From sequence record MN850645.1: a DNA stretch of 64,000 nt; one strand, written 5' to 3'. Under the pieces are notes generated by a model. It made no database searches, had not been told where the DNA came from, and saw nothing but the letters and a program-made list of their open reading frames with translations. The stretch comes from Escherichia phage outra. Each line of letters starts with the position of its first letter. The stretch's first letter is position 1. This document shows positions 34,679 through 49,480 of this stretch, one piece after another. The translations under genes and the position numbers were made by a program.

Positions 34679-35851
34679 ATGACAGCACCAAAATCATGGG
34701 AACAATATAAAGAAGAATTAACACCCCTTGCTAAAAATCGCAATATTCAAATCCTGGGTTATGTTGGTGAATGGAAAGGGAACAAGACTAAACTTAAGCT
34801 ATCTTGCCCTAAACATGGAGAGTGGAACACCACGAACATTAATGATTTTAAGAAGGGACGTGGTTGTCCTATCTGTTCTGGTAAGAAGCCGTTAACATGG
34901 GAAACAGAATTGCCGATCTTGGAAGAGATAGCACAGAAGAGGGGGTATCAGGTGTTAGGGTACGTGGGAGAATGGAAAGGGAATAAAACAAAACTTGATT
35001 TGTTGTGTCATTGTGGTAATAAATGGGATACTACAAGTATTAACAATTTTAAACGTGGTAGCGGTTGTCCACAATGTAAGAGGGAGAGACAAACAATGTC
35101 CGACGATCAACATATTGCAGATTTCTTTTCTACAGGGGAATTTAAGGAAGGCACTATCTTCACCAATACAGGGAAACGTAACAAGCGTGATGCAGTATGG
35201 ATGGTTGAGTGTCCTGTTTGCTCCCATGATGAATATGTTCAAGCAGGTGTTTGTGATGGTAAATTTTACTCTGCAGGACATAACCTTAAACAAGGGTATA
35301 TTCCGTGTCGTTGTGGGAACTATCAGTATACAGAAGACCAGATCACCTATAGGGTAAAAAAGGAAGTAGAAGGGAAAGGGTATGTCTGGGTAGATTGGAT
35401 TACCAAACCCTCTTCTATAGGTAAGTTTAAATATCTTTGTCTTGTGCATGGTGAGCAGATAGGGAGTGCTCGTAATTTATTAAGCCTCGGTCAAGGTTGT
35501 CCACAGTGTGCTGGTCATAATCAACAGCAATTATATATTAATATTGTTAAAGATAATGATATTATAGTTGCTCTTAAGTTTGGTATATCTAAAGATAGCG
35601 ATAGACGATTAAACGGTCAAAATAGCCGTAATCTGTTTTTTATGGGGCGTATTTGTTTATATGATTTTAGCACAGTGAAACAATGTAGGGCTGCTGAAAG
35701 AGCTATAAAGAAAAAATTAAAAACTGGTATTTTAACGGCAAGAGAGTTGAAAGATGGTTATACAGAAACAGTAAGTGTTTCTGATTTGGAAAATCTTCAA
35801 AAAATTATTACACAATATGGTGGCAAATTAGTATACAGTAAGGAGATGTAA
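34679..35851 (+). CDS. homing-endonuclease-like protein (tandem Zn-ribbon repeats plus C-terminal T5orf172/GIY-YIG-like domain)
   Basis: Two repeats LGYVGEWKGNKTKL...C..G..W.TT.IN.FK.G.GCP.C and a third CPQCAG unit; C-terminal YINIVKDNDIIVALKFGISKDSDRR; GAGGAG RBS. Confidence 0.5.
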   Translation: MTAPKSWEQYKEELTPLAKNRNIQILGYVGEWKGNKTKLKLSCPKHGEWNTTNINDFKKGRGCPICSGKKPLTWETELPILEEIAQKRGYQVLGYVGEWKGNKTKLDLLCHCGNKWDTTSINNFKRGSGCPQCKRERQTMSDDQHIADFFSTGEFKEGTIFTNTGKRNKRDAVWMVECPVCSHDEYVQAGVCDGKFYSAGHNLKQGYIPCRCGNYQYTEDQITYRVKKEVEGKGYVWVDWITKPSSIGKFKYLCLVHGEQIGSARNLLSLGQGCPQCAGHNQQQLYINIVKDNDIIVALKFGISKDSDRRLNGQNSRNLFFMGRICLYDFSTVKQCRAAERAIKKKLKTGILTARELKDGYTETVSVSDLENLQKIITQYGGKLVYSKEM

Positions 35852-36403
35852 ATGCGGATTACTGATAAGTATGTGTTCTTCTTCTCGGCAAAAGATGAAT
35901 TTAGCAACTGGTATCTATCATCTTTTATTGAACCTTTAGCTCCCAAGTATAATAATTCTATTACAAGTTCTGTTGAATTTACTTGTGTGGAACAATATAT
36001 GATGTGGAGAAAAGCATGTTTGTTTTATGATTACAACATTGCATCTTCTATTTTAACCGGAGATCTAAGATATACAGGAGAAAAAGAACAGGCATATTAT
36101 AAGCGACTAGGTAGATTAGTTAAAGATTACGATGAAGCTACTTGGACTTCTTTACGGGAGAAGATTGTCAAGCGTGGTTTGTATCTTAAATACACACAAA
36201 ATGAAGATCTCAAAAATAAACTTATCGCTTACGCAGATAAGGAGTTCGTAGAGGCAAGCCCTTATGATTCTATTTATGGTATCAAAATGGGAATGTGGGA
36301 TCGTGATGTGGAAAATAAGGACTGTTGGAAAGGACAAAATCTTTTAGGAAAATGGCATACAGACCTTGCTGTTTATCTAAAAGCACAATCTGATATTTCC
36401 TGA
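35852..36403 (+). CDS. NADAR (YbiA-like, DUF1768) family protein
   Basis: 183 aa; FFFSAKDEFSNWYLS...FTCVEQYMMWRKA and GQNLLGKWHTDLAVYL fit NADAR conserved blocks; AAGGAG RBS. Confidence 0.55.
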   Translation: MRITDKYVFFFSAKDEFSNWYLSSFIEPLAPKYNNSITSSVEFTCVEQYMMWRKACLFYDYNIASSILTGDLRYTGEKEQAYYKRLGRLVKDYDEATWTSLREKIVKRGLYLKYTQNEDLKNKLIAYADKEFVEASPYDSIYGIKMGMWDRDVENKDCWKGQNLLGKWHTDLAVYLKAQSDIS

Positions 36404-36599
36404 TATTTTGAAAATTTTTATTTTTATAAAAAGGGGTGTGGGTTTCATGTACGGAAATCCACCCTCTGAATAATATATCCAGAGTAAATATTATTCTGTA
36501 CTCTGTTAATAAAGTATTTAATTTGTTTGTTTGACTATGGTATCTGATCTTTAAAAGGCATACTATCTCTTAACTACTACTTATAACAGAACAGTAAAA

Positions 36600-36840
36600 T
36601 CATTTTTATAAAAAGGACAAAATTATTTAAAGTTTTTACAGATTTTTGGGTACAAATTTTGAAAATGAAAAGTTCAAGTTTGGTCAAAATTATTTAAAGT
36701 TTTTGTACGTATTTCTATCCAGATTTTGAAAATGAAAACTTCAATTTTTTAAAAATTCCCCAGTTTATTTAAAGTTTTTTTGCCTTTTTCCGTAGAAAAA
36801 TCAAAAATGAAAAGTTCAATTTCGTGTTTTTATGGGTGTG
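36600..36840. repeat. tandem direct repeats (about 60-70 bp period, 3-4 copies) in a non-coding region
   Basis: Recurring TTTTGAAAATGAAAAGTTCAA and ATTATTTAAAGTTTTT blocks near 36623, 36658-36698, 36724-36777, 36800-36830. Confidence 0.6.
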
Positions 36841-36841
36841 C

Positions 36842-36955
36842 GTATGATAATCATTTTCATTTGTAAATGAGAATCATTATCATTTAAGTATGTAAGTGAT
36901 AATCATTCTCAGTAAGAGAATGAGAATCATTAGCAAATGAGAATTTTCTCATTTA
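36842..36955. promoter_or_regulatory. cluster of AT-rich dyad operator-like sites (AATGA-n3-TCATT, Fur-box-like)
   Basis: gataatcatt, aatgagaatcattatc, gtgataatcattctc, gaatgagaatcattagc and the perfect palindrome aaatgagaattttctcattt. Confidence 0.45.
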
Positions 36956-37595
36956 GAGAATAACGCGCAGGGGCGGTGTTTGTCTCGCGCTCCCGTGTCC
37001 CCTCGCCATACAATAAGAATAGCATAACCAACAACAAAAGCAAGCGATTATTTTTATCTTTACATTTCTTTACAAATTTATTTTAGACGAGCTACCGGCG
37101 ATCAACCTTCCAACCAGTAGTGCCCTGGTATGTTAGCCCCGCCTTTACGCCGTGGGGGTGGCGCTTCCTCTTCTGTATGTAAAACAGTATAAGCCCGATC
37201 CCTGGGCTTGTCAAGATTATTTTTTGTTTTCTTGCCAGGATAGGACACCTAGCCAAAAATACATGTCGCCCCGCGCCCCTGGCGGGATCTTGCTTTCCCC
37301 GCCGCCACTGCAAGCCCATAGATAACCATTTGCGAACGTATCAAAATGATCTATTTCTTCCACCTTATGATCGCCCAGGTTGAGAACGGTTTCAACCTTT
37401 AAGCCCGTTGCGCTTGCTACCTGGTGCACCGTGCCGCCTTGCCAGCCTAATGAGTGCATGAGGTGTAAAGTAGTATTTGTCATGGTATCGCCCTTTCTTT
37501 GATGTGCGCCCTGGTTGGCGCGGTAGAAAGATAATAGCCCCTTTCCTTTATAGATAGCAAGCAAAAAAGAAATGAAAAAAGATTAAAAAAGGGGT

Positions 37596-37624
37596 TGACG
37601 TTCCTCACCTGGTAGCGTATTATT
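37596..37624 (+). promoter_or_regulatory. sigma70-like promoter (TTGACG-17-TATTAT)
   Basis: Read directly; located in a locally GC-richer island. Confidence 0.45.
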
Positions 37625-37854
37625 CATCTTGTCGAGGGGGGCGAGGCACAACGACAATAAACAAAAGGAGGGCGCAATGCAGGACGGGCAAAGGTGAGGA
37701 TCTCCACAATCCACCGTCACAATAACATTACTTATAAAAGGTTGATAACGATGATCAAGAAAGAAAACAGCTTGACGGTTGGAACGATTAACGCTATCAT
37801 TCTAGCCGTTCCATTTTGGATTGTAGTAGCGGTTATTATCTTTTAAAAATATTC

Positions 37855-37912
37855 TTGACAACGTTTTTTAATCTGATAAGATGTATCACATAGGGCGGCA
37901 ATAGTGCCGCTC
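37855..37912 (+). promoter_or_regulatory. early promoter plus stem-loop cassette (TTGACA, TAAGAT, hairpin GGGCGGCAATAGTGCCGCTC)
   Basis: Module directly precedes the RBS and ATG of 37935..38207. Confidence 0.6.
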
Positions 37913-37934
37913 ATAACAGAAGAGAGAAATAATC

Positions 37935-38207
37935 ATGGCATCATATAGCGCATCAATGATCGTAGCTGGCATCACTGGTAAACCTATGCGCGGTGGCGGA
38001 TCTTTCGCTAACATCAATATTGATGGGCGTTTATCCCTGGATGCAGCGATCACCGTGGCACGGGAAACATTTAAAAAAGAATGTAATTTCAATAAACAAG
38101 ATTATCTCGGCTTCGTTATTGAAAAAACCGCGCGCTTTGTGGATTATAAAAGCCCGAAAATGATCGACACTACACTAAAAGCGCAAGATGTAGCGTTTTT
38201 GCTTTAA
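37935..38207 (+). CDS. hypothetical early protein
   Basis: 90 aa; promoter/stem-loop/RBS module upstream. Confidence 0.5.
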   Translation: MASYSASMIVAGITGKPMRGGGSFANINIDGRLSLDAAITVARETFKKECNFNKQDYLGFVIEKTARFVDYKSPKMIDTTLKAQDVAFLL

Positions 38208-38210
38208 GGC

Positions 38211-38271
38211 TTGACACTTAAAAATAATTTTGTAATATATACCACATAAGGCGGGGAAATGGTTTCCCGCC
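38211..38271 (+). promoter_or_regulatory. early promoter plus stem-loop cassette (TTGACA-17-TAATAT, hairpin GGCGGGGAAATGGTTTCCCGCC)
   Basis: Consensus-like spacing; hairpin abuts RBS. Confidence 0.65.
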
Positions 38272-38293
38272 AAATCAAAGAAAGGGTAATGCA

Positions 38294-47977: not shown

Positions 47978-48052
47978 AAATGATAATCATTCTTATTTAT
48001 AGCTGATTATTTATGCAATAAACTGCATAATGCAATAATGATAATCATTCTT
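47978..48052. promoter_or_regulatory. two Fur-box-like dyads (AATGATAATCATTCTT), 55 bp apart
   Basis: Read directly. Confidence 0.4.
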
Positions 48053-48906
48053 AACTTATGACCATCTAACCTATAAAATAATAAGCTATCTAACTAAATT
48101 AAAACTAATTATCTCACCTTTATTTATAACTTACTGTTACTATCTCATTGATAACCTTATATTAAACAACAATAACTAATATAAATCATTACTAAGCTAA
48201 ATATAATCTATCTAACCTTTAAAACTATAACTATAATCTATCGAATTGTTGCACAAAGTAACTATTAAATTGTTAGTAACATTGCTAAATAATTAATATC
48301 CTATCTATTTATGATCTAATCTTTACCTTCCTATTTATTACCTAAATAACCATTTCATATAGTAATTATTTCATACAATAACTATAACAAGAAACATAAT
48401 TCGCAAGCGTATCATTAGCAGCCTATGCCGGACACATAGGCGGCTAATAATAACGCAACTACACACCCCACATAATAACCATCACCGATAGTTATTATTT
48501 GTGCTTATGTAGCTTGCAACAATTGCAAGCGCAACAATATACTAAGGTATATTGTATCCCTTACATTGTTGCGGTGCGTTATTATTAGCTAATGTTTAGA
48601 ACATTGGCTATAATATAAGCTGCATATAATAAGCTATTCAATAATAAACATCGTGAATAATGACATTGATGATCATAATGCGCCACCCTCCAGGGGGCGC
48701 TATGTGAACACAAAGAAATCTTTCTTATCAAGAAAATATTATCACTATTGCGCAAAATTATTTACATCTGAATAGATGATTTTTCATACTATTATTGTTA
48801 TTTGTTGAGCATAGTTATAGCCTATTTGTTGAGCCTACTTTCTTAAAAGCGCAATAAATCAGAATTATCTTGATTTTTAGTGCGTTTTATAGTATAGAAA
48901 ATATGC

Positions 48907-48923
48907 AAATGATAATCATTATC
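48907..48923. promoter_or_regulatory. near-perfect Fur-box-like site (AAATGATAATCATTATC) just downstream of a TTGATT-N17-TATAGA promoter-like element
   Basis: 15-nt identity with positions 5-19 of the E. coli Fur consensus GATAATGATAATCATTATC. Confidence 0.45.
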
Positions 48924-49480
48924 AGCTATCTTCCACGGGTAGCACTATTTCACGCCAGATCATTTCATTTGGCAAGGTGTATATAGATGTTTAGACTTGC
49001 CAAGTTATTGATTTACTTAGAATTTATCTATTTTGTTGTGAGTAGTACCTTTCTTGCTTAGAAAATAATCAAAAGTCTTATAAGTCATTGAATGATAATA
49101 CAAATGATAATTATTCTCATTGATATTTGAGGGGGACGGTCGGCAGAAATCGGGGGGTGCTGAAAATCGCGTTAAGCACCTCTCGCAAGCGAGCAGTATT
49201 TTGCGGCAAGTTATTGATATTATTGGCTTTACGCTTATGAAAAGGGGGTGTGTCGAAATAAAGCGGGTATACCGGAAAATTTTTGTGGCATAGATATTTA
49301 TTTGTCTATATTATGTACAAAGGGGTGTGTTAAAAATATTAGGTATATATAGAATAATTGATAGGGAAATCCTATACTAATCCCTCCATTAATGATGTTT
49401 CTATGTTACTGTTCTTGTAATAGATGAAAAGACGCTGTATGATGTGTGGCATGAAACGTAAACTTATAAAGGAGTCTGAT

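Follow-up and report, generated by a model that had tools for sequence, protein, structure and literature searches.

A G + C-rich island at positions 37090-37850 of Escherichia phage outra was analysed within a 64,000-nucleotide (nt) stretch of the phage sequence (MN850645.1); the window refers here to this whole stretch. The main interest of the island is an unannotated structured RNA at its left edge. The other features, consisting of a rightward promoter and its leader, a gene for a 31-amino-acid peptide and the leftward gene Phi92_gp224, are routine, and what they call for is chiefly annotation corrections. The island is likely to represent a switch point between two rightward gene blocks, and to hold two back-to-back transcription units, including a leftward RNA gene of ∼90 nt.

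The interval had been described in the original prediction as a locally GC-richer island, and a windowed calculation bears this out. The GC fraction of 37090-37850 is 0.469, compared with a window mean of 0.374 and a standard deviation of 0.026 for 761-nt windows. A value of 0.469 is reached by 0.13% of such windows, and the maximum in the window is 0.484 (start at 36961). The flanks consist of an AT-rich repeat region on the left (36400-36960, 0.253) and an early region downstream at about 0.42.

Over the 1.4 kb around the interval, identity is 100% with Escherichia phage vB_EcoM_ESCO8 (OM386653.1, Justusliebigvirus, Stephanstirmvirinae; phi92-like) and 96-98% with phi92 and about 55 other phages. 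In ESCO8, phi92 and Paula a single gene is annotated inside the interval, a leftward coding sequence of 267 nt (37217-37483, Phi92_gp224). To the left of the island is a rightward block whose last genes encode an endonuclease and a NADAR-domain protein, and to the right is a long rightward run of small early genes. A tRNA/tmRNA scan of the whole window found none.

A probable structured RNA, conserved on the minus strand

The RNA element, termed type A, is found at 37088..37177 on the minus strand and is the sole window match of a covariance model, R1 (91.9 bits). A structured non-coding RNA had been one of the suggestions for the interval; this was right in kind and wrong in place, as the RNA is not in the plus-strand leader but on the minus strand (37088-37177), at the left edge of the interval. 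The element itself, ∼90 nt long and the most widely conserved piece of the island, was absent from that description.

Only the first ∼94 nt of the interval (37090-37183) are widely kept. They are found at 80-87% identity, mostly in unannotated DNA, in Vequintavirinae phages of Klebsiella, Cronobacter, Salmonella, Pectobacterium, Raoultella, Enterobacter and Serratia. When the 761-nt interval was used as a sensitive query, matches to gp224 and the promoter region came from close relatives only. Alignment of the element reveals a sharply bounded conserved core with diverged flanks in distant genera. The element is present in roughly 200 large phages, across the Stephanstirmvirinae and most Vequintavirinae, and the covariance model matches 48 loci from six or more genera. 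No other non-coding element at the locus is as conserved across these two subfamilies of large Enterobacterales phages, which include many therapy candidates. In the fetched public records it is unannotated or mis-called as small open reading frames.

Copies drawn from GenBank phages, IMG/VR and metagenomes yielded 51 distinct sequences. They range over 13 lengths from 81 to 93 nt, stop codons interrupt every frame in many of them, and the element is non-coding. A conserved tiny open reading frame inside the RNA was considered and rejected, the AUG being present in phiTE and FKP3 only. No Rfam match to the window RNA was found, either in 5 kb at E ≤ 1 or in 191 nt (37040-37230) at E ≤ 10. Bacterial genomes gave only chance-level pattern matches, which are rejected by the covariance model, with the exception of one phage contig binned in a metagenome-assembled genome. 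The idea of a ToxI or pseudo-ToxI sequence in phiTE was also dropped, there being no match at the RNA locus. A literature search for the sequence of the element returned nothing usable.

From 5′ to 3′, the RNA comprises a purine-rich leader of ∼13 nt, a helix termed S1, an A-rich linker, a strand of a second helix, S2, a junction CUARC, a hairpin termed P3 and a near-invariant 3′ segment. S1 (CGCC...GGCG) closes a loop of 6-8 nt. In the window copy, S2 arises from pairing of this loop, CCCC(C), with GGGG further downstream, which creates an H-type pseudoknot. P3 is a hairpin of variable length with a bulged U; in the type A copy of the window it reads UACCAGG...CUGGU and has a variable loop. 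The 3′ segment is GGAAGGUUGAUCGCCGGUAGCUCG, with the general form (G)GAAGGU-R-R-AUCGCCGGUAG. The motif CGCCGGUAGC is nearly invariant in the 51 distinct copies, and the 3′ stretch GGAAGGUUGAUCGCCGGUAG is probably single-stranded. Pairing of the junction GCUA with the tail UAGC was tried and found, by eye, to be inconsistent across lineages, and no complement of the invariant tail is present elsewhere in the window.

The pseudoknot and P3 are supported by covariation. S2 covaries as CCCC:GGGG, CCAA:UUGG and CCAG:CUGG, and also as CUCC:GGGG with a G-U pair. Among the distinct combinations of loop and strand, pairing is perfect with the own partner in 7 of 10 and with a foreign partner in 3 of 58. 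The covariation score of the whole structure in a model-fitted alignment is 0.143; shuffles give 0.053 ± 0.007, with none of 500 reaching the observed value, and controls in which the partners were slid by 1-3 columns do not exceed 0.060. In P3, both partners are substituted in five pairs, e.g., columns 47:69, which are A-U in 29 sequences and G-C in 17. As G-U pairs are present, the substitutions fit a minus-strand (RNA) reading only.

The putative promoter of the RNA, P1 (TTGACA-17-TATACT, 37186..37214, minus strand), has 11 of 12 consensus matches. Its 17-nt spacer contains a GC hairpin (37191-37209, minus strand) that, with the U-rich run after it, is likely the intrinsic terminator of gp224. 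The same bases score both as P1 spacer and as terminator-like, and the gp224 message stops at 37217; one hairpin therefore likely serves both to end the gp224 message and to form the spacer of P1, as judged from the sequence. A sigma-70-type promoter (9-12 of 12 matches) is present in 44 of 44 distinct upstream contexts, and its -10 element ends 18-22 nt before S1. The spacer of 17-18 nt is a GC-rich hairpin in all 44 of them; its sequence varies by lineage and the pairing is kept, as in AGCCCAGGGATCGGGCT, CGCCCCAGGGAACGGGGC, GCCCGGCGAAAGCTGGGC and AGCGCCCGACAAGGGCG.

On the RNA strand no terminator-like site was found directly after the RNA or within 10 kb leftward. About 10 variable bases 3′ of the RNA are followed by TGTAAAGA direct repeats and a second early-type leftward promoter, an arrangement that is conserved across subfamilies. 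In the window, two direct TGTAAAGA repeats are at 37057-37074 (minus strand), and the repeat is unique in the window. The candidate second promoter, P2 (TTGCTT-16-TATTCT, 37043..37016, minus strand), matches the consensus at 8 of 12 positions only and is assigned by homology with TTGCAA-17-TATATT of the Vequintavirinae. Both the TGTAAAGA repeat and the -35 sequence GCTTGCAA are kept across subfamilies immediately 3′ of the RNA.

S1, the tail and the topology of the pseudoknot (here CCAA:UUGG) are retained in a second variant of the RNA, type B, in which P3 is different. In A7_1 and FKP3 the gp224 homologue is followed directly by type B, which stands in place of type A. Both types are carried by Raoultella phage Ro1 (Vequintavirinae) and Escherichia phage cardinal (Stephanstirmvirinae). 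In these two phages type A is interrupted in the tail at the identical junction, between ATCGCTGGTACAACG and TATTTACAAAGGAGG. Found at the junction are a gene encoding a 197-amino-acid HNH endonuclease (phrog_953, 7.6e-79), a promoter and an intact type B situated before the TGTAAAGA repeats. Tandem type A/type B arrangements are at 1290-2119 in Ro1 (locus L055), 793-1618 in cardinal (L051) and 1294-1571 in Pectobacterium phage P7_Pc (L052). An insertion of this kind points to a free-standing homing endonuclease directed at a constrained sequence, and it looks like homing between two phage subfamilies. The precision of the insertion would mean that selfish elements treat the RNA as a dependable, constrained target.

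Probable relation to Proteo-phage-1

Proteo-phage-1 (RF03044) is an orphan motif, reportedly among the 224 candidate structured RNAs described by Weinberg et al. (2017). The type B copy of Ro1 aligns over the full RF03044 model with 21.6 bits (E = 0.044 when 161 nt were searched and 0.26 for 961 nt). The variant found in an Erwinia phage does not match RF03044.

Genuine RF03044 members were fetched by a pattern from the consensus of the family, and 16 of 17 loci pass the Rfam cutoff, with 55-86 bits. In these canonical sequences, helices of 4 and 5 bp are interleaved and are both perfect in 72 of 90 distinct sequences (optimising scan); the two helices, equivalent to S1 and S2, have many covarying pair types. 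The canonical sequences also have a hairpin loop, GAUAGCCGG, that resembles the loop of type B and is followed by the tail CCGGCAGCC. An intrinsic terminator is found directly upstream in most of the 16 RF03044 copies examined. Canonical members are in lambdoid-like contigs of ∼40-55 kb, after NinG/Rap and a gene of ∼190 amino acids and before the holin, terS and terL genes; some are among tRNA genes.

The two RNAs share several motifs. The interleaved 5′ helices are found in both; in the phages analysed here S2 covaries and S1 is invariant. Both have an S1 (4 bp)/S2 (4-5 bp) pseudoknot, a hairpin and a single-stranded tail CCGG(C/U)AGC, and both occur in phages of Proteobacteria. The RF03044 tail CCGGCAGCC appears as CGCCGGUAGC in type A and as CCGGCAGC in type B of Ro1. 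The P3 loop GAU(A)AGCCG is common to Proteo-phage-1 and type B. On the other hand, the conserved RF03044 P3 loop AUAGCCGG..AGUG is absent from type A of the window, with GAUAGCCG kept in type B only; the P3 and loop of type A differ, and the window RNA is without the linker mini-hairpin. The genomic setting differs as well. The present hosts are virulent myoviruses of about 145 kb and not lambdoid-like contigs of about 40-55 kb, and the window RNA is not at the head of lysis and packaging genes but comes after gp224 and faces non-coding repeats.

Two results speak against a relationship. The RF03044 gathering cutoff is 42 bits, which is reached neither by the window copy nor by the best relative (21.6 bits), and in the reverse search the covariance model R1 gave no significant match to canonical RF03044 members. 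As this model fails to retrieve canonical members significantly, the relationship is held to be probable only. The window RNA family is thus probably a diverged relative of Proteo-phage-1, and the window copy is no member by the Rfam criterion. The relationship, as far as it holds, connects the phage RNA with an orphan Rfam motif common in temperate phages, through a shared pseudoknot, hairpin, fixed tail and, mostly, an upstream terminator.

A literature search for Proteo-phage-1 found no functional study of the motif. In a further observation, RF03044 contigs from IMG/VR (L128-L147) show conservation for at least 110 nt past the 3′ end of the model, e.g., GGTGGCGCGAGAC...GCGAGATCGATGCA...GGGCGTCGACG. 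The functional unit of RF03044 is probably larger than the Rfam family.

Possible roles of the RNA

The following course of events is proposed. A promoter near 37560 would transcribe gp224 leftward, and the message would end at the GC hairpin that forms the P1 spacer. P1 (37214..37186) would then start the ∼90-nt RNA at about 37179. The RNA, presumed to be made early and by host polymerase, would fold into the H-type pseudoknot, with S1 and with the loop CCCC paired to GGGG after the A-rich linker, and into the variable hairpin. With no terminator present, transcription would run on through P2, a conserved hairpin, Fur-box-like palindromes and AT-rich repeats. The RNA might work in cis, as put leaders do, either on the host RNA polymerase as it transcribes or on the very transcript to which the RNA belongs, and leftward early transcription might in this way be allowed to enter the repeat region. 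In the rightward direction, the promoter at 37595-37623 would transcribe a poorly structured leader and the 31-amino-acid peptide gene, after which the early cassettes follow.

The put RNAs of phage HK022 are leader RNAs that are located close to the promoter and target the polymerase as it transcribes; they consist of two stem-loops and have no pseudoknot. The window RNA is comparable to put in that it is a structured RNA of ∼70-90 nt that directly follows an early sigma-70 promoter, lacks its own terminator and is conserved among host-polymerase-dependent phages. It differs from put in that there is no sequence similarity, in that it is pseudoknotted and in that neither genes nor recognisable terminators are found downstream.

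A promoter-proximal cis-acting RNA is the preferred explanation, although it is put forward tentatively. It has a slight edge over a trans-acting RNA because the intact copy is always directly before P2, because there is no defined 3′ end and because the canonical relatives are at the head of an operon. Several observations weigh against this explanation, or against the RNA on which it depends. There is no downstream gene to express, and the repeats, if read as origin-like, have no enrichment of DnaA boxes. S1 is invariant in the RNA family, so that covariation cannot test it there. Single-sequence folding of either strand gives z of about 0, and the RNA alone, with z = 0.04, is not thermodynamically unusual by a method that cannot model pseudoknots. 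No expression data or transcriptomes were found in the literature for any of these phages. The rV5-like phage MiataMamis is without the RNA element and, because of this, the element appears to be dispensable in some lineages.

An alternative of comparable but still modest plausibility is a stable small RNA that acts in trans. It would be made early, cut from a longer transcript, and would bind or titrate a conserved host or phage protein or RNA by means of its pseudoknot and invariant 3′ segment. Consistent with this are the strong promoter that the RNA has for itself in every lineage and the very high conservation of the unpaired segments in phages of Escherichia, Klebsiella, Cronobacter, Salmonella, Pectobacterium, Erwinia and Serratia. 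In addition, genuine Proteo-phage-1 copies are sometimes among tRNA genes, where stable RNAs get processed, and RF03044 is typed as a small RNA gene by Rfam. However, no intrinsic terminator or defined 3′ end is found in about 44 contexts, and no complementary target was detected within the window. Furthermore, in loci with a second copy it is the intact one that immediately precedes the TGTAAAGA/P2 region, an indication that the position is important. Should the RNA act in trans, it would represent a new host-directed small RNA of phages.

It is conceivable, though unlikely, that the P1/P2 transcript primes or activates a replication origin in the AT-rich repeats, through an R-loop or a primer as at the ColE1, T7 or T4 origins, with the folded G-rich RNA helping the hybrid. 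The layout is suggestive of this, as three AT-rich direct repeats with spacings of 67-75 bp (36602-36822, 0.25 GC) and a palindrome cluster are directly downstream, two tandem promoters are aimed at a region that has no genes on that strand, and the order of repeats, palindromes, P2 and RNA is the same in Klebsiella phage BIS47. Yet, apart from the missing DnaA-box enrichment, the cumulative GC skew has a local dip at the leftward genes only and no lasting switch, and genuine Proteo-phage-1 copies are at the head of the lysis/packaging region, away from replication genes. An RNA that does act on transcription or replication, if that proves true, would represent a new phage control device.

The conserved sequence might also act as DNA, i.e., as a protein-binding site, a single-strand initiation signal or the recognition site of the homing endonuclease. 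The invariant tail holds the short palindromes GATC, CCGG and AGCT, the HNH cassette inserts exactly in the tail, and neither S1 nor the tail, both invariant, provides RNA-specific evidence. A role of this type is improbable in view of the compensatory substitutions seen in two helices, where G-U pairs are tolerated on a single strand, the freely varying length of the hairpin and the promoter kept at a fixed distance in every lineage despite sequence turnover. Both origin priming and a purely DNA-level role rank below the cis and trans explanations.

Returning to the cis-acting RNA, a broader and distinctly speculative extension is that the pseudoknot RNA and Proteo-phage-1 form one superfamily of cis-acting promoter-proximal RNAs, a new class of RNA-based processive antitermination or anti-pausing. 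In such a superfamily, and with as little assurance, temperate phages would use the RNA at the start of late transcription, and large virulent phages would use it for early transcription into origin-like, Fur-box-studded repeats.

Neighbouring genes, the rightward unit and flanking repeats

The gene Phi92_gp224 (37217..37483, minus strand; 88 amino acids, phrog_19316) is annotated in phi92, Paula and ESCO8 and is a genuine conserved gene. The product is helical and carries a conserved N-terminal motif, LMxxLGWQGGTVHQVAxATGL. A minus-strand open reading frame without an obvious ribosome-binding site (RBS) had been proposed at 37217..37564. This maximal frame exists; the annotated gene, however, starts at the ATG at 37483, where AAGGG is present about 8 nt upstream and an RBS is annotated in phi92, and the absence of an RBS is true only of the upstream TTG start. 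A candidate gp224 promoter (TTGCTA-18-TATTAT, 37531..37560, minus strand; 9 of 12) is conserved in sequence in relatives and is back to back with the rightward early promoter. A 61-amino-acid DUF7170 protein occupies the same slot in Mydovirus and Seunavirus; homology with gp224 was considered and none is apparent, a forced alignment giving 16-17% identity.

The rightward unit starts with an ordinary conserved early promoter of the sigma-70 type (TTGACG-17-TATTAT, plus strand; 10 of 12 consensus matches). The original prediction had recognised this promoter, which is at 37595-37623, one base from where it had been placed. It is common to Justusliebigvirus, Phapecoctavirus and the Vequintavirinae phage A7_1 and is kept across the Stephanstirmvirinae. 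In the phAPEC8 record a PHIRE-predicted promoter is annotated just downstream of the homologous site. The 5′ leader (37629..37750, plus strand) consists of a 5′ hairpin (37629-37657) followed by about 90 nt that include a 6-codon open reading frame. This insert of ∼90 nt is found in Justusliebigvirus, in ZCKP1 and in L011, and is seen in ESCO8, phi92 and PD06. It is missing from phAPEC8, where the promoter, the usual 5′ hairpin and the RBS lead directly to the first early gene. The GGAGG and 6-codon frame that had been noted are present (37667-37697); GGAGG is at 37667-37671 and ATG CAG GAC GGG CAA AGG TGA at 37677-37697. The frame is broken in ZCKP1 (ATG-TAG, a stop at codon 2), and in PD06 the Shine-Dalgarno sequence is weakened to GGCGG.

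At the end of the leader is a gene for a single-pass membrane peptide of 31 amino acids (37751..37846, plus strand), which is unannotated in ESCO8. The product, MIKKENSLTVGTINAIILAVPFWIVVAVIIF, comprises MIKKENSLTVGT and a 19-residue hydrophobic segment, i.e., a short charged N-terminus and one hydrophobic helix. The hydrophobic 31-codon frame had been described correctly in the original prediction, and its suggestion of a small membrane peptide is upheld in the sense that the frame appears to be a real conserved gene for a single-pass membrane peptide. A tblastn search detected the peptide in 113 phage records, 108 of them at 80% coverage or more, and about half annotate a hypothetical protein. 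There are nine distinct alleles, all intact frames of 31-35 amino acids, with variable sites in a ratio of 5:3:14 by codon position. In Phapecoctavirus the gene is about 1.7 kb further downstream in a cassette with its own promoter, 5′ hairpin and AAGAGG RBS. No family match was found in Pfam or PHROGs, and no result of the analysis points to a toxic effect of the peptide.

Small early membrane peptides of large virulent phages and the type I toxin peptides Ibs and Sho offer systems for comparison. The peptide resembles both in having a charged N-terminus and one hydrophobic helix. It differs from Ibs/Sho-type toxins in that no convincing antisense RNA is found, the gene is in an ordinary early cassette and there is no family match. 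A weak antisense promoter-like site is at 37847..37820 (9 of 12), and sites with this score number 17 in the 3.5-kb region, a modest excess over the 9.7 expected in shuffles.

It had also been suggested that the promoter, the micro-frame and the 31-codon frame could together serve as an attenuator with a leader peptide or as a module for a small membrane toxin. The strong Shine-Dalgarno sequence with its 6-codon frame, the conserved product with one hydrophobic helix and the weak antisense site are in keeping with this. An attenuator would be expected to have a conserved short frame and alternative terminator and antiterminator hairpins; neither is found here. An attenuator or structured leader is unsupported because the micro-frame is lost in relatives, folding of the 136-nt leader is no more stable than that of shuffles (z = +0.74), no plus-strand terminator-like hairpin was seen between the promoter and the 31-codon frame, and a 5-kb Rfam scan at E ≤ 1 gave no match in the leader. 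With the ordinary Phapecoctavirus cassette, its own promoter and good RBS, and the number of 9/12 sites also against it, such a module is very doubtful.

The next early cassette has a promoter (TTGACA-16-TAAGAT with TG, 37855..37882, plus strand) that drives a gp226 homologue (37935-38207). From 37855-38290 onward the early genes appear as repeated cassettes, each with a sigma-70 promoter, a transcript start CACATAGGGCGG that forms a 5′ hairpin and an RBS of the ACAGAAGAG type. The 5′ leader of the minus-strand RNA (CAUACAGAAGAGGAA) resembles the RBS segment of these cassettes.

On the other side of the island, in the stretch with the TGTAAAGA repeats and P2 (36962-37074, minus strand), the P2 transcript would start with a hairpin. 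Its loop, GAGACAAACACC, is shared by ESCO8, BIS47 and MiataMamis, and a second conserved RNA or DNA element may be present here. Fur-box-like 7-1-7 palindromes (TGAKAATCATTMTCA) are also present, with four copies within 90 bp (36845-36935) that have 1-2 mismatches to TGATAATNATTATCA. A second cluster is at 47981-49119 and includes a perfect TGATAATCATTATCA at 48910. Sites with three or fewer mismatches total 32, and 11.2 are expected. Similar boxes are found in the same place in Klebsiella phage BIS47 and in MiataMamis.

Further left, between the NADAR gene and the palindrome cluster, are three AT-rich direct repeats of about 79 nt (36602-36822) with spacings of 67 and 75 bp, in a region of 0.25 GC; DnaA boxes are not enriched near them. 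BIS47 has different iteron-like repeats at the same position. The two upstream genes (34679-36403) encode a 390-amino-acid protein (PHROG endonuclease) that carries a T5orf172 domain and four zinc-ribbon repeats of the CapR type, and a 183-amino-acid NADAR-domain protein; both are plain hypothetical proteins in the ESCO8 record. Five records labelled Campylobacter phage (e.g., A145, MG065645.1, 146 kb) match the locus at about 97% identity; probably their host label is wrong, or else the records are contaminated.

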